Positions 2,416 to 52,177 of a DNA stretch of 64,000 nt are shown piece by piece. A program made the translations under genes and the position numbers. Each line of letters begins with the position of its first letter. Position 1 is the stretch's first letter. Below the pieces are notes generated by a model, which was given only the letters and a program-made list of their open reading frames with translations, was not told the DNA's origin and searched no databases. Source of the stretch: Anaerolineae bacterium (GTDB lineage Bacteria; Chloroflexota; Anaerolineae; Aggregatilineales; Phototrophicaceae); assembly GCA_020849765.1 (NCBI GenBank), contig JADLAY010000017.1, forward strand, positions 44,906 through 108,905, given 5' to 3'.

Positions 2416-3543
2416 CTATCTCGCTCCCTGCTGGGTGACCCAGCGGTAGACGGCGTCGATCTGCTCGACCATCGCCGCGAGGCTGAGCGATTCCGCTGTC
2501 CGTCGCGCCTCCACCCGCGCCGCCGCCAGCCGCGCCGGATCGTCGAGCAAGCCCCGGATGGCCGCCGCCATCGCCCCGGCATCGCCCACCGGCACGGCGA
2601 CGCCCAGGCCGCGATGATCCGGCAGCATGCCGACCGCGGTGCCGACTGTGGGCAGGCCGCAGGACGCCGCTTCGAGCGTCGCCAGCGGGCCGGTCTCCGT
2701 CCAGGTTGCCATCAGGTGCAGCGCCGCGCGCCGGTAATGGGCGGGCAGGTCGAGGTGATCGACGCGCCCGATCCAGCGCACGCGCTCGGCCACGCCAAGC
2801 TCGACCGCCAACCGTTCGAGCCGCCCCCGCTCCGGGCCGTCGCCGATCACCTCGAGCGTCACGTCGGCGGGTAGCAGCGCCAGCGCGCGCAGCAGCAGCG
2901 CCTGATCTTTGATCGGGATCAGTGAGCCGACGTGGATCAAACGCCGAGGGTCGTAATCGCCGCCGGGCGTGAAATGATCCGTATCGACGCCGAGACAGAC
3001 GCGCTGCAAACGCTCGGCAGGCACGCGATAGCCGGCCCGCCCGATCAGGCCGTCGCTGTAGGCACAGGTCGAGAGCACGGCATCTGCCCGCAGCGCCTGA
3101 CCGACGATCCACCGGCTGAAGCGCGAGCGCTGCAAGCCGTAGCCGACTTCGGGGAAGCTGACCAGTTCACCGCCCAGGATCGAGACGACCGACGGCAGGC
3201 CGAGCTGCCGCCCTGCCCAGGCGGCCAGCGCGCCGGTCTCATCCGCCCACAGGCCATGGAGCAGATCGAACGGCGCCTCACGATGGAGCCGCCGGATCAC
3301 CCGCAGCGCATCGGCCCACAGCAGCAAACGACGCGCGCCGCTGGCTTGCGCCCAGCCAAGCGCCGTCACACCGACGCCGTCGATGCGATAGCGGTCGCGC
3401 CGGTGTGGATAGCGCAGGGCGATCACGTGGACGTCGTGCGTCTCGGCCAGCCGCGCGATCGTGCGCCGCCAGACCGGCAGCGCCCAGTCGGTCTCGTCAG
3501 TGCTGTGGCCGGGGATCAGGATGCCGACGCGCAAGCGCTTCAC
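2416..3543 (-). CDS. glycosyltransferase family 4 (GT-B, group 1)
   Basis: 375 aa. GT4-type C-terminal half (HLMATWTETGPLATLEAASCGLPTVGTAVG and surrounding) with an N-terminal Rossmann-like half. 4-bp overlap with the downstream GT39 gene suggests an operon. Confidence 0.85.
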   Translation of the reverse strand: MKRLRVGILIPGHSTDETDWALPVWRRTIARLAETHDVHVIALRYPHRRDRYRIDGVGVTALGWAQASGARRLLLWADALRVIRRLHREAPFDLLHGLWADETGALAAWAGRQLGLPSVVSILGGELVSFPEVGYGLQRSRFSRWIVGQALRADAVLSTCAYSDGLIGRAGYRVPAERLQRVCLGVDTDHFTPGGDYDPRRLIHVGSLIPIKDQALLLRALALLPADVTLEVIGDGPERGRLERLAVELGVAERVRWIGRVDHLDLPAHYRRAALHLMATWTETGPLATLEAASCGLPTVGTAVGMLPDHRGLGVAVPVGDAGAMAAAIRGLLDDPARLAAARVEARRTAESLSLAAMVEQIDAVYRWVTQQGAR

Positions 3544-5156
3544 GGTCGCACCTCGTAGAGCGTGAAGTTGCCGTAGCGCCCGATTTCGTCCAGGCCGCGC
3601 GTCTCACGCAGCCAGCGGACGGCGATCTCCGGGCTGAGGCCGCGCCATTGATTCTCGATCTGCCAGCGGTTGATCAGCAGATAATCGGTCGCCCCATCGC
3701 GCGCGCCGGCCAGCGTCTCCGGCGTCTGATCGTAGAGTTCGCGCGGCTCGAAGCGGGTGTAGCGGCGGAGGGGCAGCGCCAGCCCCAGGGCATAAACGCG
3801 CGCGTCGGGCGGGAGCTGCGTCTCCAACCAGGCGATCACCTGCTTGTCTTCGCTCTGGCGGGCGATGAAGGCCCTCGTGTAATCGACGCCGGTCGCGATC
3901 ATCTGCCCCAGCCCGACCGTGCAGACGATCAGCGCCAGCGCGAGCGCAAACCTGCGAACGCGATGCTGAAGCGTGAGCAACGCCTCCAGGCCGAGCGCCG
4001 CCAGCAGTGCGACCGCCGGGACGACGATCAGTGGGAAGCGGATGTTCTGGTACGGTGTCCCGGCCAGGAAGGCGTATGGCAGCAGCAGCCAGCCGAGGGC
4101 GAGGAGAGTCAGTGGTAGGGGCGCCCTCACCCTAAATCCCTCTCCCTGATGGAGAGGGACTTTCACGAGATCTTTTCGCTCCCCTTCTCCCTGAGGGAGA
4201 AGGGGCTGGGGGATGAGGGTCACAGGAGTCTGTCGTCTCTGCGACAGCGTCAACGCCCACTGCTTCCGCCATAGCAGCGCATAGACCCCAACGGCGACCA
4301 GCGGCGCGAGCCACGGCGACAGATAGATCGGCGCGTAGACCGGCTGCGCGTAGAAGGCGGCGTTGGTCGTCGCATACTCGAAATGTCCGTCGGCGTTGTC
4401 GAACGTGCTGCGCAGAGCATTGGCGGGCGACCAGCCGATCACCCACGGATGATCGAGCGCCGGGTAGGGATTGTTCAGGCTGTAGGCCGTCTGCGCGAGG
4501 ACGATCGGCAGCGCGCACAGAGCGGCGATCCCCAGGTGACGGAGCCTGGCGCGCATCGCGATCAGGGCCGCGATCCAGACCGGGACGAGGCCGAGGTAGA
4601 TCCAGCGCGTGACGACGGCGCAGACGAGCGCGACCGCCGCCAGGGCCAGCAAACCCCCACGCCCCGTGCGACCATAGTGCATGAGACCGAGCGCACTCAA
4701 ACTTGCCCAGAACAGCGCCGGAATATCCGACATGAGGACGACGCTCGACTGGATCGCCTGGCCGCCGACGGCGACGATCAGCCCGGCCAGCGCCGCGCTC
4801 CACGGGCGGCAGCCGCACTCGCGCGCCAGCAGGTAGACGATGGCACTGAGCGCGACGCCGATCAGCAGGCCGACCGCCTGCGCCGCGGCGATGCTCCCGC
4901 CGCTGACGGCGAAGACGAGCCCCAGCAGCGCCGGGTAGCCAAGCGGCCAGTAGAACGGCGGGATCGCCTCGCCATGCGCGAGCGCCGCCGACAGCCGCTC
5001 GGCGAAGTCGGCATAGGCGTAGGCGTCCTGGCCGTAAAGACCGTCGAAGCCCGCCCCGGCGAGCACGTGCAGGCGCAGCGCCAGCGCGACGAGGCAGACG
5101 AAAGCGAGGAGGAGTGAGTCGAGTGAAGGGCGAAGGCGGGGAGTCATACCACTCAC
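3540..5156 (-). CDS. glycosyltransferase family 39 / GT-C (ArnT/PMT-like) polytopic membrane protein
   Basis: 538 aa with more than 10 predicted TM helices. N-terminal loop DAYAYADFAERL is typical of PMT_2/ArnT-like enzymes. Carries an in-frame ~100-bp MITE-like insertion (PQPLLPQGEGERKDLVKVPLHQGEGFRVRAPLP). Confidence 0.75.
   Translation of the reverse strand: MSGMTPRLRPSLDSLLLAFVCLVALALRLHVLAGAGFDGLYGQDAYAYADFAERLSAALAHGEAIPPFYWPLGYPALLGLVFAVSGGSIAAAQAVGLLIGVALSAIVYLLARECGCRPWSAALAGLIVAVGGQAIQSSVVLMSDIPALFWASLSALGLMHYGRTGRGGLLALAAVALVCAVVTRWIYLGLVPVWIAALIAMRARLRHLGIAALCALPIVLAQTAYSLNNPYPALDHPWVIGWSPANALRSTFDNADGHFEYATTNAAFYAQPVYAPIYLSPWLAPLVAVGVYALLWRKQWALTLSQRRQTPVTLIPQPLLPQGEGERKDLVKVPLHQGEGFRVRAPLPLTLLALGWLLLPYAFLAGTPYQNIRFPLIVVPAVALLAALGLEALLTLQHRVRRFALALALIVCTVGLGQMIATGVDYTRAFIARQSEDKQVIAWLETQLPPDARVYALGLALPLRRYTRFEPRELYDQTPETLAGARDGATDYLLINRWQIENQWRGLSPEIAVRWLRETRGLDEIGRYGNFTLYEVRP
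4126..4224. repeat. MITE-like palindromic element, copy 1 (in-frame inside the GT39 gene)
   Basis: Ends CCCTCACCC...GGGGGATGAGGG. Internal hairpins CCCTCTCCC-TGA-TGGAGAGGGA and CCCCTTCTCCC-TGA-GGGAGAAGGGG. Confidence 0.7.
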
Positions 5157-8288: not shown

Positions 8289-9500
8289 ATGGTTCCACAA
8301 CGAAAGTCGCTACACATGCGGGCTCGCAAGGTTGACTACACGGCTGTCTTGATCGCTTATTTCAGTTTCATTGTGCTGGGGATGCCCGGCGCGCTGCTCG
8401 GTATCGTCTGGTCGCCGCACATGCGCGAGACGTTCGCGCTCGACCTGGACGGGGTCGCGGCACTCTATGCCACCGTCAGCATCGGTTATTTCGTCGCCAG
8501 TTTCATCAGCGGGCGCCTGTTCTCACGCTACAACATCGGCCTGCTGCTGACCGGGGGCTGCGCGATTGCGGCCATCGCCTTTACCGGGTATGCCCTGGCA
8601 TCGACATGGGGACTGGTCGTGGCGATCGGGTTTGCGGCAGGCTTCGGCGTCGGCATCCTCGACGGCGGCATGAATATCTACTTCGCCGCGCATTTCGATT
8701 CACGCCTGATGAACTGGCTGCATGCCTCGTTCGGCATCGGCGCGACGCTGGCGCCGTTCATCATCAACATCGTGCTGATCAACAACGGCTCCTGGCGCAT
8801 CGGCTACTGGATGATCGCCGGGTTGTACGTGCTGGTCGCCATCCTCTACTTCGTCACGCGCGCGCGCTGGCTGCCGCTCGATGGCGTGGTTGACCAGGCG
8901 AAAGCACGCAAAGGGACGCCCGTTCGGGATACGCTGCGGCTGCCGATCGTCTGGGTCGGGATCATCTTTTTCGTCCTGTTCGCCGGTCTGGAATCGAGTA
9001 CCGGCCAGTGGAGCAAGACGATTTTCAACGAGTCGCGCGGCGTCCCGGAGACCATCGCCAGCAACTGGGTCGGGCTTTACTGGCTCAGTTTCACCATCGG
9101 GCGCATCTTCTTCGGCTTCATCGTGACGCGCGTCGAAGCCAGCCGCCTGATTCGCATCTGCATGTTCGGGGCGTTGGCCGGGCTGGCCCTGTTCGTCTGG
9201 AATCCATTCCTGGAAAGCGGTCTGCTGGCGGTGGCGCTGTTCGGCTTCATGCTCGGCCCGATCTTCGCCATGATGGTGACGGCGACTCAGGAACGCCTGG
9301 GCGGCACGCATGCAGCCAATGCCATCGGCTTCCAGGTCGCCTCGTCGACGATCGGCATTGGCCTGATGCCGGGTCTGCTCGGCGTGGCGGGCGTCACCTT
9401 TGGCCTGGAGAGCATCACGGTCGCGCTGCTGGTCGTGCTGCTGATCATGACGGTCCTCTACGAACTATGGGGGCGGATGCCGGTGCGCATCGCCGCGTAG
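8289..9500 (+). CDS. MFS transporter
   Basis: 403 aa, 12 TM-like segments. MFS-like loop motif GRLFSRYNIG between TM2 and TM3. An alternative start at 8316 is possible. Confidence 0.8.
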   Translation: MVPQRKSLHMRARKVDYTAVLIAYFSFIVLGMPGALLGIVWSPHMRETFALDLDGVAALYATVSIGYFVASFISGRLFSRYNIGLLLTGGCAIAAIAFTGYALASTWGLVVAIGFAAGFGVGILDGGMNIYFAAHFDSRLMNWLHASFGIGATLAPFIINIVLINNGSWRIGYWMIAGLYVLVAILYFVTRARWLPLDGVVDQAKARKGTPVRDTLRLPIVWVGIIFFVLFAGLESSTGQWSKTIFNESRGVPETIASNWVGLYWLSFTIGRIFFGFIVTRVEASRLIRICMFGALAGLALFVWNPFLESGLLAVALFGFMLGPIFAMMVTATQERLGGTHAANAIGFQVASSTIGIGLMPGLLGVAGVTFGLESITVALLVVLLIMTVLYELWGRMPVRIAA

Positions 9501-37119: not shown

Positions 37120-38775
37120 ATGCCTAGTGCATTCATCTCTTATCGCCGCGTCGAAAGCGCTGCCCTTGCCACGCTGATCGCCGTCACCTTGCAAGACAAG
37201 CATGGCATTGAAGTTTTCGTCGATACCCGCAGTACCGACGGTGGTGGCCTGTTTCCTGACCGCTTGCGCCGCGCCATTGAACATTGCGACGTATTCGTTT
37301 GCCTGCTTGGCGCGACGACGCTGGAATCCGCCTGGGTGATGGAAGAGATCGAACATGCGCATAACTTGCGCAAGACGATGATCCCGGTCTTCCAGGAACG
37401 TTACGTTCCGCCCAACCCAATTCCCAGCGTACACGTCGAAGCACTGCTGCAATCGGATGGATTGCAGGTTCTTGATGTGCGCAACGTGTACGTCGATCAA
37501 GCTATCTCCGACTTGGCGTCAATGATCAGAAGATCCGTCGGTGCTCCAATGCCGCCGCCCAGGCGAGGCATCGGGTTACCTCTGATTGCCGCAGTCTTGG
37601 TGTTGCTCGCGTTAGTCGCCCTTGGCATCTTCCTGGTGTCTCGCGCCATGGAATCCCCCACTTCAACAGCCAGTCCGACACAGATCGCGGGTGGTGTGAC
37701 CGCCAGCACCACCATCGAGCAACCCACCGCTGCACCGACAGAAGATGCGGCTGGCACACGGGTCGCCCAATTGCAGGCCAGCCTGACCGCCTTGGCGCAA
37801 CTTCAAATCGTAGGGGAAGAAACCGCGACGGCGGACGCCGCAACGCGTGGTGCTGCTGCACAAATCGATGCGACTTTGCGGGCAGCCGCGGACACCGCGA
37901 CCGCGGCTGCCCTCGCTATCACGCAATCCGTATTGGGTGAAACGGCGACTCAGCAAGCCATTGACGCGACCGCGATAGCTAGTGTATCGACAGATACTCC
38001 CACCCCATCCGCGACACCTACGCCTATCACACTGGAATATGCTTACGCCCAGGCAGTAAATTATGATGATGGTCAGGGAAATACGGCATGGACGCCTATT
38101 GCATATACGTTTGGGGATGGCGTGACGATGGTTCTAGTACCGACGGGCTGCTTTTTGATGGGTAGCAGCGAAGGTAATATTAACGAACAGCCCATCAATG
38201 AGCAGTGCTTTGTCGTGCCATTCTGGATCGACCAGACTGAAGTGACACAGGCCGATTTTGTACGTCTGAGTGGACAAAAGGCGGCCCCGAATGAATTTCC
38301 TGCTGACCAACACCCCGTTGAGAATATCACTTGGTTCGAAGCACGTAATTTCTGCGTGTTGCGGGGTGCGCGCTTGCCAACAGAGCGCGAATGGGAATAT
38401 GCAGCCCGCGGCCCTGAAGGATGGATCTACCCATGGGGAAACATGTGGGACACGAGCTATGCTGCATGGAACCGGAGTAGATCGCAAAGAACCGCCATCG
38501 TGGGAACAGCATCAAATGGGGTTTCCTGGGTCGGTGCACAGGATATGAGCGGCAACGTCTGGGAGTGGGCGAGCTCCCTTTACCAGCCGTACCCCTATGC
38601 GGCAGACGATGGACGAGAGGGGGATATGAGAGACCTTGCGGATGCTCAACGTGTGTTGAGAGGCGGTTCTTGGTACTACGTCAGTACTATTGGCCTACGC
38701 GCGCCTACGCGCAGCGGACTCGACCCAATAGCCAAAGACAATCTATTAGGTTTCCGTTGCGCCCGCGATGTCTGA
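37120..38775 (+). CDS. TIR domain - TM helix - Thr/Ala-rich linker - FGE-sulfatase (SUMF1-like) domain fusion protein
   Basis: N-terminus SAFISYRRVES and SAWVMEEIEHA (TIR alphaC SxW..E motif with the conserved Glu). One TM (LPLIAAVLVLLALVALGIFLV). C-terminal FGE-sulfatase signatures GNVWEWASS, RGGSWYY, GFRCARD. AT-rich promoter region 37010-37120. Confidence 0.8.
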   Translation: MPSAFISYRRVESAALATLIAVTLQDKHGIEVFVDTRSTDGGGLFPDRLRRAIEHCDVFVCLLGATTLESAWVMEEIEHAHNLRKTMIPVFQERYVPPNPIPSVHVEALLQSDGLQVLDVRNVYVDQAISDLASMIRRSVGAPMPPPRRGIGLPLIAAVLVLLALVALGIFLVSRAMESPTSTASPTQIAGGVTASTTIEQPTAAPTEDAAGTRVAQLQASLTALAQLQIVGEETATADAATRGAAAQIDATLRAAADTATAAALAITQSVLGETATQQAIDATAIASVSTDTPTPSATPTPITLEYAYAQAVNYDDGQGNTAWTPIAYTFGDGVTMVLVPTGCFLMGSSEGNINEQPINEQCFVVPFWIDQTEVTQADFVRLSGQKAAPNEFPADQHPVENITWFEARNFCVLRGARLPTEREWEYAARGPEGWIYPWGNMWDTSYAAWNRSRSQRTAIVGTASNGVSWVGAQDMSGNVWEWASSLYQPYPYAADDGREGDMRDLADAQRVLRGGSWYYVSTIGLRAPTRSGLDPIAKDNLLGFRCARDV

Positions 38776-39313
38776 TTGCGACCACACTTACCCCCAGCGC
38801 AAATCGCCTCGTCTCCGCGACTATGATTACGCACAATCCGGTGCATATTTCGTCACCATCTGTACCTATCGACGTGAGCATCTCTTTGGCGAGGTCGTCG
38901 ATCAACAGATGCATCTGTCGCGGATGGGATCGATTGCTCATGACCTGTGGTACACCATCCCCGATCATCATTCGCAGGTCGAACTCGATGCGTTCGTCGT
39001 CATGCCCAACCATGTCCACGGCATCATCGTTGTAGGGACGCCGCGTGCGGCGTCCGGCGGCGAGAATGATGGGCGATCGGCGGACAGGGCACGCCCTGTC
39101 CCTACGGAATCGCTCGGAGCGATCATCGGTGCGTACAAGTCCGCCGTGACACGCACCGTCAATCAGGCGATGAGGTTGGTCGCGCCGACGGTCTGGCAGA
39201 CGCGCTATGACCATCACATCATTCGCAGCGAGCACGATCTAGACCGCATCCGCGCCTACGTCGCCGACAACTCCGCGCGATGGCTGGATGACACGCTGTT
39301 CACAAAAGGATAG
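38768..39313 (+). mobile_element. REP-associated tyrosine transposase (RAYT, IS200/IS605-like Y1 HUH transposase)
   Basis: HUH motif NHVHGIIVV and catalytic Tyr context RYDHHIIRS. Start ATG overlaps the TIR-FGE stop (ATGTCTGA). Contains an in-frame copy of the 28-bp REP-like palindrome. Confidence 0.8.
39079..39107. repeat. REP-like 28-bp palindrome, copy inside the RAYT ORF
   Basis: Identical core to 11591..11619. Encodes SADRARPVPT in-frame. Confidence 0.75.
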
Positions 39314-40846: not shown

Positions 40847-41458
40847 CTAGCGGAATCCATTCCACATCAGGTTCAGGTAGGCGGGCAGAATGTCCTTGAC
40901 GACCTGCTGCGCGGCCTGCTCGGCGGAGATCGGCAGGCCCTTCTCCAGCCACCACGAGGCAATCCCGATGAAGCCGGTGCTGTAGAACTGGAGCGTCATC
41001 TCCAGCGGATAGCCGATGTCGAGCTGCGGATGATCCCGCGTGATCGGCTCGAAGATCAGCTCGTTCAGCAGCGCCTGAAACAACTCGCGAAACAGTGGAT
41101 CGCCATGCTTGCCGAGCAGGGTTCGGTAGAAAGCCTCATGCCGCTCCAGGTGGTGCAAGACGTTCGCCACGACCGGCTCCAATGACGCCGGGTCCTGCTG
41201 CTTATCCCAAACTTTGTAGATTTCTGTGCGCACTTCGCCGAACAGGGTTTTCGCGCAATCTTCCAGCAGTTCGTGCAAGCCGCTGTAATGCAGGTAGAAC
41301 GTCGTTCGATGCAACCCGGCTTGCTGAGTCACGTCCTGGATCGTCAGGCTGGAGAAGCCCCTGTCCGCGATCAGCGCCATCAGCGCATTGCGCAGTAAGG
41401 CGCGGGTGCGAACGATTCGGGGGTCCTGGGTCGCGTCGTTCATCGATACCTTGTCCAT
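40847..41458 (-). CDS. TetR/AcrR-family transcriptional regulator
   Basis: TetR HTH (LTIQDVTQQAGLHRTTFYLHYSG). Start chosen at an internal Met of ORF 40847..41527 and may be off by about 15 bp. Divergent from the MMPL gene. Confidence 0.75.
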   Translation of the reverse strand: MDKVSMNDATQDPRIVRTRALLRNALMALIADRGFSSLTIQDVTQQAGLHRTTFYLHYSGLHELLEDCAKTLFGEVRTEIYKVWDKQQDPASLEPVVANVLHHLERHEAFYRTLLGKHGDPLFRELFQALLNELIFEPITRDHPQLDIGYPLEMTLQFYSTGFIGIASWWLEKGLPISAEQAAQQVVKDILPAYLNLMWNGFR

Positions 41459-41577
41459 ATTTGTCGAATAGACAACACAGGCCGTGGAAATGTCGATTTG
41501 TAATTCGAGCCTGTGCGTATAATACAACTTATCGACAGAATGTCGATTAGCGAACCTGCATGGTGTTGGCGCGCCAG

Positions 41578-41699
41578 CCTACCCTCAACCCCGTCCCCTT
41601 CTCCCTGATGGAGAAGGGGAGAAAAATCGGTTCTGAAAGTCCCTCTCCCTGACGACCAAAGGGAGCACCGAAGGTTGGGAGAGGGATTTAAGGTGAGGG
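41578..41699. repeat. MITE-like palindromic element, copy 2 (inverse orientation, TetR-MMPL intergenic region)
   Basis: Both termini match copy 1 ends in reverse complement (CCCTCAACCCCGTCCCCTTCTCCCTGA / GGGAGAGGGATTTAAGGTGAGGG). Confidence 0.7.
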
Positions 41700-41816
41700 C
41701 AACAAAGAGCACAACGAATGATGACCAAGTCACACTGAGTTCTGCCCCGCCAGCGCGGCCCCGTTCTTGTTTGTCTGTTGAACCGAGTACTTACCGTAAT
41801 CCATTCGCATTGATGC

Positions 41817-44423
41817 GTGAGGAATCACTTCATGTCCTATCGCCGTATCGGCGCGGCGGCCGTCCGCCTGCGCTATCCCATTATCGTCGCCTGGATTGCC
41901 GCCGCGGTCATCATCACGCTGCTGGCGCCGAATCTATCCGACGTGACGACTGCCGATCTCTCGCAGATGCTGCCGACCGACGCGCCGTTCAATTATGCCG
42001 CGGACATCTACAAAGCCGCCTTCCCCGACTCTGCGGACACGACCGGCGCCGTGATCGTCATCAAGACGACCGATGCCGAGGGCGTCCTCAATCAGGCTGC
42101 GCCCACCTTCGCCGAGCAAACCCGGACGCCCGCCGCTGAATTCATCAGCGAGCTGTGCGCGTGGCTGAGCAGCGACGACGCCCCAGAGCGCATCACCGGC
42201 GTGACCTGCCCCGTGAGCGCTGAGGAAGTCGCCGGGATGACGATCGACAGCAGCAACCAGGTCGCCATGGTTCCGCTCAACCTGGCGGATGGCGACGTCA
42301 TCTTCGAGCAGGTGGTCGCCGACCCGATTCGCGCCTGGATCGGTGAGCATCAGCCGGACGGCATCACCAGCTACATCACCGGGTCACAGGCGGTGATTTC
42401 TGCCTTCGTCGACGCGGCGCTGACGACGGTCGAGCGCACGCTGATCGTGACGGTCGCGCTGGTCGTGCTGCTGCTGCTGCTGATTTACCGCTCGCCGGTC
42501 AGCCCGATCATCCCGCTGACTGCCGTCACGCTGTCGTACCTGATCACGCGCGGAATCGTCGGCGTGCTTGCGGCCAACGTGCTGACCGTCTCCAGCTACG
42601 CCGACATCCTGCTCGTCGTCGTCATTTACGGCGCGGGCACGGATTACTGCCTGTTCCTGATCAGCCGCTTCCGCGAGGAGGTCGCCGGGCACCTGGCCAT
42701 CCCCGAAGCGACGATCACGACCGTCGAAAGCGTGGGCGAGACGATCGCCAGCAGCGCAGGGACGATCTTCGTCGGCTTCACGGCCATGGTCTTCGCGCAT
42801 TTCGGCGTCTTCAACGCCTCCGGCCCGACGCTGGCGATCGGGATCGTCATCTCGTTGATCGCGGGCCTGACGCTCGTGCCCGCGATGCTGTCCGCCCTCG
42901 GCAACCGGGCATTCTGGCCCGGCACAGCCAGGCACCGCGCGCAAGGCCGATTCTACGCCGCGACGTCGAACCTGGTCGCGCGTCACCCGGCGCTGATCAT
43001 GATCATCATCATTGCGGTGATGCTGCCGCTCGGCATCTACGGCTTCAACGCGCCGCTCAGCTACAGTTCGCTCGAAGATCTGCCGGATCACGTCGAGGCT
43101 AAAGCGGGCTTCAACGTGCTTGAGGATACGCTCGGCCCCGGCAACCTGGCACCGCTGACGGTCGTCGTCACCGAGCGCGACCCGGCCACCATGACCGGCG
43201 AGATCATCCAGCTCGAGTCCGATCTGCTGGCGCTTGACGGTGTCGCCGACGTCATGAGCCTGAACAATCCGGTCGGGCAAGGCGGCGAGATCAGCAGCCT
43301 GCTGCGCGTCGACAGCCAGCTGCGCCTGATCGGGAGCTTCCTCTCGTTGGGCAGCACGGAGACGATGCCCGATCTGCAATCGATCAACACGATGTTCGCC
43401 GGCATGCAGCAGTATCTTGACAATCTCGCGGCGAAGTTCCCCAGCATCGCCGATGACCCCGACCTGCTGACGCTCAAGCAGAGCTTCACCAGCCTGTTGA
43501 CCTTCGCGCAGCATCAGGCGGATGTGGCGCCCGCGCTCGAAAACCTGGCGACGCGCTTCGAGTCAATCGACGATCCCTACTTCGACATCAGCGAACTGGC
43601 GAACCTGATGCCCGCCGATTCTGGCATGGCCGAAGGCGCCATGTTCACGCAGTTGATCGACCAGTATCTATCGACCGACCGGCAGAATTACCGCATGACA
43701 GTCATCCTGACCGGCGACCCCAACAGCGGCCAGGCGCTGGATACGCTGCTCGAAATCCGCGGCGTGCTGGATCACTACAAGAACGGCGGCGAAGCAGTCG
43801 TCAACGGGCAGCCCGCCATGCTGGCCGACCTGCGCGACGTGCTCAACTCCGATCTCGTCCTGACCATCGGCGTCGTCAGCCTGGGCATCTTCCTCGTCCT
43901 GCTGGTGATGCTGCGCAGCTTCATCGCGCCGCTGTATTTGATCGCGACGGTGAGCCTGAGCTACTCGTTCACGATGGGGATCACCGATCTCGTATTCCGC
44001 ACCTTCTTCGGAGCGGAGAACGGCCTGTCATTCGTCATCCCGGTCTTCTGCTTCGTCTTTTTGGTCGCGCTGGGCGTCGATTACAGCATCTTCCTGATGG
44101 GGCGCGTCAAGGAAGAAGTCGCGCAGCGGGGCATCGGTGACGGCATCCACGAAGCGGTCGTCGCCACCGGGCCGATCATCACGTCGGCGGGCATCATCCT
44201 GGCGGGCACCTTTGGCTCGATGATGTTCGGCGATGTCGCGGCGTTGGCGCAGCTTGGCTTCTCCGTCGCCGTCGGCATTTTGATCGACACGCTGGTGGTG
44301 CGCACGATGCTCGTCCCGGCGATCACGCTGCTGCTGGGGAAGTGGGCCTGGTGGCCCGGCGGCACCGCGCAGGCGAACACAGAGGCGAAGGCCGTAAGCG
44401 ACGCCCGTCTGGCAAAAGGGTAA
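41817..44423 (+). CDS. MMPL/RND-superfamily membrane transporter
   Basis: 868 aa, two 6-TM bundles each followed by a large extracytoplasmic loop, typical MMPL architecture. Paired with TetR. Confidence 0.85.
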   Translation: MRNHFMSYRRIGAAAVRLRYPIIVAWIAAAVIITLLAPNLSDVTTADLSQMLPTDAPFNYAADIYKAAFPDSADTTGAVIVIKTTDAEGVLNQAAPTFAEQTRTPAAEFISELCAWLSSDDAPERITGVTCPVSAEEVAGMTIDSSNQVAMVPLNLADGDVIFEQVVADPIRAWIGEHQPDGITSYITGSQAVISAFVDAALTTVERTLIVTVALVVLLLLLIYRSPVSPIIPLTAVTLSYLITRGIVGVLAANVLTVSSYADILLVVVIYGAGTDYCLFLISRFREEVAGHLAIPEATITTVESVGETIASSAGTIFVGFTAMVFAHFGVFNASGPTLAIGIVISLIAGLTLVPAMLSALGNRAFWPGTARHRAQGRFYAATSNLVARHPALIMIIIIAVMLPLGIYGFNAPLSYSSLEDLPDHVEAKAGFNVLEDTLGPGNLAPLTVVVTERDPATMTGEIIQLESDLLALDGVADVMSLNNPVGQGGEISSLLRVDSQLRLIGSFLSLGSTETMPDLQSINTMFAGMQQYLDNLAAKFPSIADDPDLLTLKQSFTSLLTFAQHQADVAPALENLATRFESIDDPYFDISELANLMPADSGMAEGAMFTQLIDQYLSTDRQNYRMTVILTGDPNSGQALDTLLEIRGVLDHYKNGGEAVVNGQPAMLADLRDVLNSDLVLTIGVVSLGIFLVLLVMLRSFIAPLYLIATVSLSYSFTMGITDLVFRTFFGAENGLSFVIPVFCFVFLVALGVDYSIFLMGRVKEEVAQRGIGDGIHEAVVATGPIITSAGIILAGTFGSMMFGDVAALAQLGFSVAVGILIDTLVVRTMLVPAITLLLGKWAWWPGGTAQANTEAKAVSDARLAKG

Positions 44424-44522: not shown

Positions 44523-44593
44523 GGTTTTTATACTGGGGGACCTGGATTCGAACCAAGATCACCTGGGCCAGAACCAGGCGTTCTGCCGTTGAA
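44523..44593 (-). tRNA. tRNA-Gln (anticodon CUG)
   Basis: Hand-folded cloverleaf from the reverse complement: acceptor UGGGGGA/UCCCCCA with the U1-A72 pair typical of bacterial tRNA-Gln, U8, D-stem GUUC/GAAC, anticodon loop UUCUGGC, T-loop UUCGAAU, discriminator G. No encoded CCA. Confidence 0.75.
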
Positions 44594-44647
44594 CTATCCC
44601 CCATAGTTCGAAGCGAATAGTAGCACAGCCCCCACGCCCGATCAAGG

Positions 44648-52000: not shown

Positions 52001-52013
52001 GGCGAACAGAACG

Positions 52014-52081
52014 CCTCACCCCCGTCTCGCTCCGCTTCGACTCCCCCTCTCTGTGCGCGGAGAAGGGGTTGGGGGGTGAGG
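52014..52081. repeat. MITE-like element, short copy 3 (thrC - GT2 intergenic)
   Basis: CCTCACCCCC...GGGGGGTGAGG termini with an internal CCCCCTCTC/GAGAAGGGG hairpin. Confidence 0.5.
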
Positions 52082-52177
52082 TTCATGGATAGGTCTTAGT
52101 TGAATTCGATGAGTGCACACGATCAGAAGCTTGATCTGGGCACCGCACATCCTGAAGGGCGAAATGGGGAACGGCAC

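Follow-up and report, generated by a model that had tools for sequence, protein, structure and literature searches.

The 64-kb window from an Anaerolineae genome (the whole stretch of DNA analysed, 64,000 nucleotides) contains a palindromic repeat, present as two full copies and one copy with a single hairpin. The three sites probably represent a small mobile repeat that is neither coding nor autonomous, and one copy of which was inserted into a gene encoding a GT39/PMT-family membrane glycosyltransferase. That copy 1 is an in-frame, lineage-specific insertion in this gene is supported by alignments with orthologues. Related copies were found in several phyla, and some of them also lie in frame within genes.

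Structure of the repeat

The repeat has the layout GCCCTCACCC, hairpin A, spacer, hairpin B and GGGGGATGAGGG. It consists of two inverted modules, each with a G+C-rich hairpin that comes after a terminal CCCTCAYCC(C) motif, and the unit of approximately 95 nt is therefore a large palindrome closed by its termini. A dispersed palindromic family had been proposed at three sites of the window in the original prediction, and all three exist, with slightly corrected coordinates (orientation given from A to B):

4123-4220, plus strand: core of copy 1 (from the sequence; nhmmer E = 2.5e-33, copy in seed)
4124-4132: left terminus of copy 1, CCCTCACCC
4138-4158: hairpin A of copy 1, arms CCCTCTCCC and GGAGAGGG
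4159-4180: spacer of copy 1
4181-4205: hairpin B of copy 1, arms CCCCTTCTCCC and GGGAGAAGGGG
4211-4219: right terminus of copy 1, GGGATGAGG
41577-41701, minus strand: copy 2 (nhmmer E = 5.2e-29, copy in seed)
52013-52083, plus strand: copy 3, short and diverged, with one hairpin (from the sequence; partial nhmmer match, E = 3.6e-4, copy outside the seed)

The nhmmer profile was seeded with three copies, namely copies 1 and 2 of the window and the copy in the orthologous locus L001, and the E-values of copies 1 and 2 are circular because both are in the seed. When reverse-complemented, copy 2 aligns to copy 1, with a hairpin A loop that is approximately 24 nt longer. Copy 3 has the order GCCTCACCCCC, spacer, CCCCCTCTCTGTGCGCGGAGAAGGGG, TT, GGGGGGTGAGG and is located 12 nt past the stop codon of a PLP-enzyme gene and 16 nt ahead of a GT2 gene. 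The core length ranges from 71 to 125 nt, with three copies in the 64 kb. The sequence CCCTCTCCCTGA, allowing at most one mismatch, occurs four times in the window (0.31 expected), a number reached in none of 100 shuffles.

Terminal inverted repeats of 9-10 bp close the element. The pairing of GCCCTCACCC with GGGGATGAGGGC comprises nine pairs, including one conserved C.A mismatch, with 88% of the cells paired in an alignment of 40 copies, and the asymmetry of the ends (C.A versus G.T) was kept in 37 of them. The stems in this alignment are conserved as sequence, with few compensatory changes, and the unpaired linkers TAAAT and ACTTTGA are, like the stems and termini, also kept across phyla. 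Covariation was discarded as evidence for an RNA, since the copies vary too little and hairpin B is invariant only because of the pattern used in the scan.

All copies of the window are predicted to fold into a multibranch structure closed by the termini (z = -3.2 to -6.0 against shuffles). The predicted RNA folds of copy 1 have energies of -57.1 and -60.3 kcal/mol (z = -4.8 and -6.0), and z-scores were -3.2 and -4.9 for copy 2 and -3.4 and -4.4 for copy 3. A canonical G-quadruplex (G4) motif is present in the right half of 128 and in the left half of 134 of 159 full-length copies, and, of the four G4 motifs in the window, three lie within elements. The putative G4-forming stretch of the element is GGGAGAAGGGGCTGGGGGATGAGGG.

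The copy within the GT39 gene

The features of the gene and of the insert are as follows:

3540-5156, minus strand: gene for the GT39/PMT-family membrane glycosyltransferase, 538 amino acids (Pfam PF02366, E = 4e-8)
4119-4259, minus strand: whole insert, 141 nt or 47 codons, free of stop codons (from the DNA alignment with L001, L002 and L003 and the protein alignments)
4221-4259: unique extra 39 nt within the insert, on the hairpin-B side of the element, with a small hairpin of its own (CTGTCG..CGACAG)

The GT39 protein has 145 homologues and a 100% match to a protein annotated as 'MAG: Anaerolineae bacterium' at NCBI. The insert is composed of the 98 nt of the element together with 4 nt and 39 nt of unique sequence, and its translation is WALTLSQRRQTPVTLIPQPLLPQGEGERKDLVKVPLHQGEGFRVRAP, longer than the approximately 33 residues originally estimated. 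One peptide predicted to span the insert is DLVKVPLHQGEGFR.

In the protein alignment the insert is absent from 86 of 88 homologues. These have 12-25 residues at the insert site, compared with 63 in the window protein and 55 in P0002. At the DNA level, empty sites were found in L002 and L003, both orthologues with 76% identity. In L001, an 83%-identical orthologue from an independent JGI assembly, an element is present in the same loop in the opposite orientation, its junction one codon away. The original prediction of one copy in frame within this gene is thus borne out, and the orthologue alignment confirms an insertion and not a conserved ancestral segment.

No target-site duplication was seen at the GT39 junctions when the window was aligned with the orthologous DNA. 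No second copy of the extra 39 nt was found in 1.8 Mb (the window plus the loci); the first 15 nt or so resemble the extra sequence of the L001 insert. A tandem duplication of the target (RRRQ-LPLTLL) was considered as the origin of these 39 nt and rejected, the similarity being too weak. Altogether, the 43 nt of the insert that do not belong to the element are a poor fit to a simple insertion.

Both the GT39 frame and the flanking gene are intact, and every invariant residue of the family is present. In the AlphaFold2 model (mean pLDDT 91.1, pTM 0.90) residues 309-346 form a coil with a pLDDT of 49-53, i.e. approximately 50, compared with more than 90 for the rest of the protein. The coil is flanked by helices 281-308 and 347-365, in agreement with the earlier suggestion that the added residues are in a loop between helical segments, and the position of the insert is predicted to be compatible with the GT39 fold.

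Copy 1 probably inserted into the coding sequence of a short loop, positively charged and situated between two helices, after the lineage had split from that of GCA_023382675.1. Since the insert has a length that is a multiple of three and contains no in-frame stop, it would be read through as a 47-residue disordered loop, which the enzyme appears to tolerate.

The copy between the TetR and MMPL genes

Copy 2 is flanked by two genes:

40847-41527, minus strand: TetR gene
41817-44423, plus strand: MMPL gene

An operator-like palindrome, ATCGACAGAATGTCGAT (41531-41547), adjoins a TATAAT sequence (41518-41523). This palindrome is kept in three orthologous TetR/MMPL intergenic regions from which the element is absent (L120, L121 and L122). 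Copy 2 had been predicted to lie where the TetR operator would be expected, but the conserved palindrome is outside it. No junction or duplication can be read for copy 2, because the orthologous spacers hold approximately 115 nt of unrelated sequence at its position. Copy 2 separates the conserved TetR operator/promoter region from the start codon of MMPL, and is therefore probably within the 5' leader of MMPL. A regulatory effect of copy 2 or copy 3, if any, would be secondary.

Distribution of the repeat

Among the matches listed, the element was found at more than 116 loci in genomes and more than 120 in metagenomes, both figures being lower bounds, with hosts that include Anaerolineae, many Cyanobacteria, Leptospirales, Proteobacteria and others. 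At least 159 full-length copies are present among the 243 loci listed. The family, originally treated as belonging to one genome, is thus not specific to a lineage and is common to several phyla. A regular expression for the modules missed known copies and was not used, and a literature search with sequence strings of the element returned only unrelated human and primer matches.

Copies in Cyanobacteria and other Chloroflexota are 86-88% identical, and the identity of copy 1 to the copies from Microcoleus, Phormidesmidales and Tolypothrix (0.87-0.88) equals its identity to an Anaerolineae copy. Bacterial miniature inverted-repeat elements (MITEs) are reported to be specific to genera (PMC11602168), in contrast to this non-coding repeat, which is so similar in different phyla. 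The similarity suggests either transfer, probably within microbial mats, or recognition machinery that is widely shared. Leptospirales and Burkholderiales have more diverged copies with two hairpins, and single modules were found in metagenome loci and in Alphaproteobacteria. The core is embedded, in Nostocales and Leptolyngbyaceae, in longer repeats with outer inverted repeats of their own. Viral contigs contained a single-hairpin variant in one lineage, and hairpin B was not found in them; carriage of the element by phages is possible but rare.

At least nine of the 159 full-length copies (approximately 6% intragenic) are in frame in genes verified with Pfam:

GT39 gene of the window
GT39 gene of L001
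PMT gene of L079
TPS gene of L066
GT4 gene of L055
HypF gene of L005
Eco57I/MmeI methylase gene of L195
Wzy_C gene of L185
NAD synthase gene of L135

From the intact frames, these copies would be read through. Copies in coding regions occur in either orientation, and between co-directional genes the orientation was not biased (26 versus 29, p = 0.79). Many of the in-frame hosts are polytopic membrane proteins or proteins of glycosyl transfer.

Mobility and alternative explanations

Close relatives differ in the presence of the repeat at two loci: the GT39 loop is filled in the window and L001 and empty in L002 and L003, and the TetR/MMPL spacer contains the element in the window and not in L120-L122. 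The repeat has the behaviour of selfish, non-autonomous DNA and in this is comparable to the Rickettsia palindromic elements (RPEs).

The flanks of 67 copies contained no target-site duplication of fixed length and no preferred length of direct repeat, with only a slight excess of flanking direct repeats of 2-5 nt over shuffled pairs (3-mers, 11 versus 7.7; 5-mers, 3 versus 0.4). In 1.8 Mb, no transposase-like open reading frame of 200 or more amino acids was found between matching termini, and the open reading frames between termini were only ordinary genes situated between two separate copies. No repeats flank the Y1_Tnp gene of the window (38768-39313). Near copies, the only further Y1 homologue is in L168, a classical RAYT flanked by GTAG REPs that differ in sequence from the element. 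A partnership with RAYT/Y1 enzymes was therefore rejected for the loci examined, the nearby Y1 genes having other repeats or none, and the enzyme that moves the element would act in trans, from a gene located elsewhere.

A hairpin- or single-strand-recognising HUH tyrosine transposase (of the IS200, RAYT or TIRYT kind) is a tentative candidate for this enzyme, rated somewhat likelier than a DDE cut-and-paste transposase, for which the case is doubtful. The HUH type is favoured because there is no target-site duplication, the subterminal hairpin stems are conserved and so is the C/T asymmetry of the ends. IS200/IS605 elements and REPs are not known to carry terminal inverted repeats of the kind seen here, which counts against the link with HUH enzymes.

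The repeat could instead be a classical MITE, that is, a deletion derivative of an insertion sequence with a DDE transposase, moved by cut and paste, with duplications too short or too decayed to be detected. The label MITE, used in the original prediction, agrees with the terminal inverted repeats that close the element, its small size, its multiple copies and its presence/absence polymorphism. The slight excess of short flanking direct repeats and the longer cyanobacterial repeats with outer inverted repeats are also in line with it, and Cyanobacteria and Leptospirales are reported to be rich in MITEs (PMC11602168). However, target-site duplications of fixed length and a partner transposase, which would be expected of such an element, were not seen in the 67 copies and the 1.8 Mb, respectively, and the occurrence of this element in several phyla contrasts with the reported restriction of 98% of MITE clusters to a single genus (PMC11602168). 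The label is accordingly loose, and this origin appears somewhat unlikely.

An unlikely, broader proposal is that the unit of approximately 95 nt, whose halves carry G4 motifs on opposite strands, forms a single element passed horizontally among Cyanobacteria, Chloroflexota, Leptospirales and some Proteobacteria, and moved without target duplication by a not yet recognised partner enzyme. It would be a recurrent source of disordered loops, especially in polytopic membrane glycosyltransferases and ligases, and thereby a cross-phylum counterpart of the RPEs.

It is quite unlikely that the repeat is not selfish and is instead a structural or regulatory element selected by the host, such as a REP-like mRNA stabiliser or terminator, a protein-binding site or a G-quadruplex/i-motif, its conservation reflecting function. 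The stems, termini and unpaired linkers kept across phyla, the frequent G4 motifs, the strong predicted folds and a sub-threshold likeness to the orphan whalefall-1 RNA motif would fit such a role. Against it, orientation relative to transcription is unbiased, coding-region copies occur in both orientations, orthologous sites in close relatives have no copies, a T run is absent after the hairpins, covariation is small and no Rfam family reached its gathering score in the window and ten other element-bearing loci.

Instead of being an insertion, the extra GT39 segment might in principle be low-complexity coding sequence, either ancestral or of independent origin, or a product of chimeric assembly. 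Such an origin might be suggested by the segment's 43 nt of non-repeat sequence, its G/P/E-rich peptide and the occurrence of the exact gene in one assembly only, but is already contradicted by its absence from nearly all homologues, by the recurrence of its 98 nt at two other sites of the window and hundreds elsewhere, by the same element family in the same loop in the independent L001 assembly, and by the intact frame, flanking gene and invariant residues.

Comparison with known repeats

In-frame, read-through insertion of selfish palindromes is best documented in Rickettsia. The RPEs (Ogata et al. 2000, 2002) are palindromic repeats of approximately 100-150 bp, in frame in unrelated genes and read through (summarised in PMC10969869). 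By description, the mobile repeat resembles them in being in frame in the Pfam-verified hosts and in the position of its peptide, which is compatible with the modelled fold. It differs in its hosts (Chloroflexota, Cyanobacteria and others instead of Rickettsia) and in its spread across phyla, and also in the small share of intragenic copies, compared with nearly half in some RPE families (PMC10969869). Comparable in-frame insertions would occur among free-living bacteria of the Chloroflexota and Cyanobacteria, including two in one loop of a single enzyme family, and offer a tractable case for how mobile DNA adds loops to proteins.

REPs are described in PMC3116915 and PMC3733652 as imperfect palindromes of 20-40 nt with a GTAG or CGTC tag at one end. 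As in the REPs and REPINs of these accounts, two hairpin modules in inverted order make up a larger palindrome, modules are also found singly, target-site duplications are absent and some copies are inside genes (PMC3116915, PMC3733652). The element, in contrast, has no GTAG or CGTC tag, and its modules are longer and start with (G)CCCTCAYCC. No RAYT gene is flanked by it, the RAYT-like genes seen having other repeats or none. REPIN families are also inherited vertically within a genus (PMC3116915, PMC3733652), unlike the element.

With MITEs such as Nezha of Anabaena and Nostoc (PMC3184786), Correia and ERIC the element shares its small size, lack of coding capacity and terminal inverted repeats, and Nezha was recently transferred between species (PMC3184786). 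A stable predicted fold, filled and empty sites in relatives and occasional fusions with open reading frames are further likenesses. It differs from Nezha (compared by description), Correia and ERIC in having no direct repeats at its ends and no matching insertion sequence among the sequences searched. For Nezha, Zhou et al. in 2008 reportedly also proposed a transfer from cyanobacteria to a betaproteobacterium.

The consensus of the whalefall-1 RNA (Rfam RF01762), an orphan metagenomic motif without assigned function, has a CUCUCC/GGAGAG hairpin followed by AGGGUGAGG, an arrangement that corresponds to hairpin A and the terminus on the B-to-A strand. The match at 4123-4160 (minus strand) scored 22.3 bits compared with a gathering score of 37, and the spacing is 5 nt rather than 24.

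TIRtrons, or TIRYT repeats, have terminal inverted repeats, are in some cases doubly palindromic, carry a GGGGWSAS motif and flank a tyrosine transposase gene, according to PMC3733652. The ends of copy 3 and the right ends of 'type 2' copies (GGGGTGAG) fit the motif as given there, whereas the copy 1 right end (GGGGATGA) deviates from it, and no tyrosine transposase gene flanked by the element was found in 1.8 Mb.

Matches in protein databases

A word-indexed protein search with the insert peptide gave no matches, whereas 26 were obtained when 1.84 billion representatives were searched in full with HMMER. Those inspected were tiny open reading frames over intergenic copies or unrelated repetitive proteins (P0215, P0225, P0237 and P0239), and the search was for this reason unusable for counting intragenic copies. 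The repeats create many spurious small open reading frames in protein databases, of the form ...IPQPLLPxGEGEQDFKVPLPxGEGFRVRA...

Three copies of one palindromic repeat

On inspection of the sequence, the three sites named in the original prediction as a MITE-like family were indeed copies of one repeat of about 100 bases, with inverted termini and two hairpins (A and B, bracketed below):

4123-4220, copy 1 core: G-CCCTCACCC-TAAAT-(CCCTCTCCC TGAT GGAGAGGG)-ACTTTCACGAGATCTTTTCGCT-(CCCCTTCTCCC TGA GGGAGAAGGGG)-CTGG-GGGATGAGG-GT
41577-41701, opposite strand to copy 1, copy 2: the same two-hairpin unit, first-hairpin loop about 24 bases longer
52013-52083, copy 3: termini and a single hairpin retained, with a PLP-dependent enzyme gene ending 12 nt before it and a GT2 gene 16 nt after it

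The hairpin-A motif was found four times in the window, against an expectation of 0.31; in 100 shuffles the count never reached four. A profile seeded with window copies 1 and 2 and the copy from L001, a locus of an independent JGI assembly, found the full copies in the window at E = 2.5e-33 and 5.2e-29, scores made circular by the presence of both copies in the seed. The search also found copy 3, which is outside the seed, at E = 3.6e-4, and gave no match in the window beyond these three copies. Each copy was predicted to fold with paired termini closing two or three hairpins (RNA z = -3.2 to -6.0). The recurrence, the profile scores and the folds show that the repeat is not a product of chance.

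Copy 1 within the GT39 gene

The ORF at 3540-5156 (minus strand, 538 aa) encodes a membrane glycosyltransferase of the PMT/GT39 family. In an 88-homologue alignment the segment from the end of one helix (...GVYALL) to the start of another (LPLTLL) was long only in the window protein (63 residues) and in P0002, the orthologue in L001 (55 residues); in the remaining homologues it was 12-25 residues, mostly 14-16. The alignment with orthologues called for in the original prediction thus placed the insert in these two proteins and in no other of the 88. Two orthologues that align with the window protein at 76% identity, from L002 (GCA_023382675.1) and L003, have an uninterrupted junction in their DNA, ...CGACGTCGACAA/CTGCCGCTG..., at which the window carries 141 extra bases (4119-4259). 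The repeat accounts for 98 of these; it is flanked by 4 bases at one end and by 39 (4221-4259) at the opposite end, and this flanking sequence had no second occurrence in 1.8 Mb. Folded as single-stranded DNA, the 141-nt insert gave z = -5.6.

The insert corresponds to 47 codons, free of stops in the frame used, so that copy 1 lies in frame in a continuous ORF, as had been predicted. The window protein retains every family-invariant residue. An AlphaFold2 model from the 88-sequence alignment (mean pLDDT 91.1, pTM 0.90) placed the inserted segment, at pLDDT 49-53, in a predicted coil (309-346) flanked by helices 281-308 and 347-365. This low-confidence coil between helices agrees with the predicted extra loop between membrane segments in all but its length, which the empty-site alignment sets at 47 residues rather than about 33. 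We infer from the sequence that the insert would be translated as a loop of an active enzyme.

Further insertions in GT39 and other genes

P0002 is 83% identical to the window protein and has the element family in the same loop, in the orientation opposite to that of copy 1 relative to the gene. The junction is between RR and Q in L001 and after RKQ in the window, and on its hairpin-B side the L001 insert is extended by about 21-25 bases, the first 15 or so of which resemble the extra bases of the window. The simpler reading is that members of one sub-family inserted twice, independently; a single insertion, with the entire insert later inverted, may also account for the two. A different C-rich hairpin repeat (CCTCACCCC ... 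CCCCTCCCC/GGGGAGGGG) was found in frame in another loop of P0004, the GT39 orthologue in L003 (about 8590-8725), where it adds 46 residues.

Copies elsewhere were regarded as in frame when the frame was open through the copy and for at least 50-70 codons beyond it on both sides, followed by a Pfam check. The hosts were:

L079, Tildeniella (cyanobacterium), PMT/GT39 protein
L066, Caldora, TPS-domain protein
L055, Chloroflexaceae, GT4 glycosyltransferase
L005, Anaerolineae, HypF, with a second element-derived segment just downstream
L195, metagenome, Eco57I/MmeI-type methylase
L185, metagenome, Wzy_C O-antigen-ligase protein
L135, metagenome, NAD synthase, copy within the CN_hydrolase domain

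Including the window and L001, at least nine of 159 full-length copies have such hosts. In addition, L179 encodes a membrane protein which holds two copies and has no Pfam match. At least one of the six frames was open in 63 of the first 75 copies examined, which partly explains the tolerance of insertions. Insertion in a permissive loop, with the frame kept and no stop introduced, would allow the element to persist within a gene.

Copy 2 and the TetR/MMPL spacer

Copy 2 lies between two genes:

40847-41527, minus strand, TetR gene
41817-44423, plus strand, MMPL transporter gene

Just downstream of the latter is a tRNA gene, 44533-44603 (-) (Rfam RF00005, 62.5 bits).

Orthologous spacers were compared from three relatives with TetR identities of 84%, 85% and 70%, and the element was absent from all three. 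All four spacers retain a stretch adjoining the TetR gene, in which a TATAAT (41518-41523) lies next to ATCGACAGAATGTCGAT (41531-41547), a perfect palindrome. Overlapping this stretch is a promoter-like site for the TetR strand. The likely TetR operator/promoter region is 41518-41547. It is outside copy 2, and the original placing of that copy at the expected operator site is not supported. Copy 2 is probably in the MMPL 5' leader, downstream of the operator region toward MMPL. In the relatives this position is taken up by about 115 nt of unrelated sequence, which leaves copy 2 with no clean empty site.

Distribution across phyla

A genome scan (one genome per species) with hairpin B as the sole query gave at least 116 stretches, and a metagenome scan with the left end as the sole query gave at least 120, with G+C of 0.32 to 0.67. 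Among the genome matches listed were Anaerolineae and other Chloroflexota, many Cyanobacteria (Nostoc, Tolypothrix, Calothrix, Leptolyngbya, Microcoleus and others), Hyphomonadaceae/Caulobacterales, Leptospirales, Beta- and Gammaproteobacteria, one Bacteroidales and one WOR-1 genome. The profile identified at least 159 non-overlapping full-length copies in the 243 loci from both scans, and the complete genome of Tolypothrix tenuis PCC 7101 contained at least 11 separate blocks.

Cyanobacteria and Chloroflexota share a nearly identical form of the full two-hairpin unit, down to its unpaired linkers TAAAT and ACTTTGA. Copy 1 has an identity of 0.87-0.88 to copies from Microcoleus, a Phormidesmidales genome and Tolypothrix, equal to that with another Anaerolineae copy. 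In a census, 98.2% of MITE clusters (95% identity, full length) were restricted to one genus (PMC11602168), and sharing at 86-88% between phyla is therefore unusual, although the two identity thresholds differ.

The loops and the central spacer vary, with nested insertions in some loops. Among copies ascertained by the left end the right half is modular: it combines hairpin CCCCTTCTCCC with GGGGGATGAGGG or hairpin CCCCTCTCC with GGGGGTGAGGG, or is made up of other repeats; in Alphaproteobacteria single modules stand alone. Longer repeats with conserved flanks of their own (for example ...GGTGCATCCCA.../...TGGGATGCACC and ...GTGTCAACTTAAGC...) enclose the core in Nostocales (L007, L040, L046-L048, L077, L082, L093 and others) and in Leptolyngbyaceae and relatives (L036, L065, L096). 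These composites may correspond to named cyanobacterial MITEs.

Three IMG/VR viral contigs (L243, L244, L245), of one viral lineage, carry a single-hairpin variant with both termini; hairpin B was not found in IMG/VR viral contigs. Database proteins of 43-130 aa (P0216, P0222, P0226, P0229 and others), with the translation ...IPQPLLPxGEGEQDFKVPLPxGEGFRVRA..., are called over intergenic copies and are probably spurious.

Proposed mobilisation and relation to known repeats

The element fits a selfish, non-autonomous palindromic repeat which has spread within and between phyla. Flanking direct repeats of 67 copies were like those of random left/right pairings, with no favoured length, and a search of 1.8 Mb for a transposase-like ORF enclosed by matching termini found none. 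The termini are asymmetric in 37 of 40 copies, CCCTCA-C-CC on the left and the complement of CCCTCA-T-CC on the right; when they pair, this leaves a C.A mismatch on one strand and, on the opposite strand, a G.T pair. The stems are conserved in sequence, with double changes in five pairs only, in an alignment where the invariance of hairpin B is a product of the scan pattern and carries no weight. The absence of target duplication, the conserved stems and the asymmetric ends lean towards an enzyme recognising hairpins in single-stranded DNA, and the terminal inverted repeats towards a DDE enzyme.

The window contains an IS200-like Y1_Tnp ORF (38768-39313 (+), 181 aa, Pfam PF01797) tightly between two genes, with internal hairpins at 39032-39059 and 39078-39105, the first with a REP-like GTAG at its start. 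A relative (L120) has a homologue of 78% identity at the syntenic place, and the gene looks like a resident RAYT-like gene, possibly domesticated. The only other homologue near an element copy in the 243 loci, at 2300-3300 of L168, is RAYT-like, with classical GTAG REPs (GTAGGGGCGATGCATTCGGCC) on both sides, 2.4 kb from the copy. For these loci a link of RAYT to the element was rejected, since no repeats flank the window ORF and the L168 REPs are unrelated to the element in sequence.

A host-selected function is less likely, because there was no orientation bias between co-directional genes (26 vs 29, p = 0.79), intragenic copies occur in both orientations and the element is absent at orthologous sites.

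Canonical G-quadruplex motifs are present in both halves on opposite strands (128/159 and 134/159 copies), and three of the four in the 64-kb window lie within elements: 4124-4146 (-), 4195-4219 (+) and 41582-41605 (-).

The closest functional parallel is with the Rickettsia palindromic elements (PMC10969869). In structure the element comes nearest to REPINs and MITEs (PMC3116915, PMC3184786, PMC3733652), although it lacks a defining feature of each of these two. It is a new family of an already known kind, part of which may have been named before among the cyanobacterial MITEs (Nezha and the Anabaena MITEs). At threshold the element matched no Rfam family, either in the window or in ten further loci. 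The closest model was the orphan motif whalefall-1 (22.3 bits vs a gathering score of 37, window 4123-4160 (-)), whose consensus hairpin CUCUCC/GGAGAG and tail AGGGUGAGG resemble hairpin A and the terminus; this motif may be related to the repeat family.
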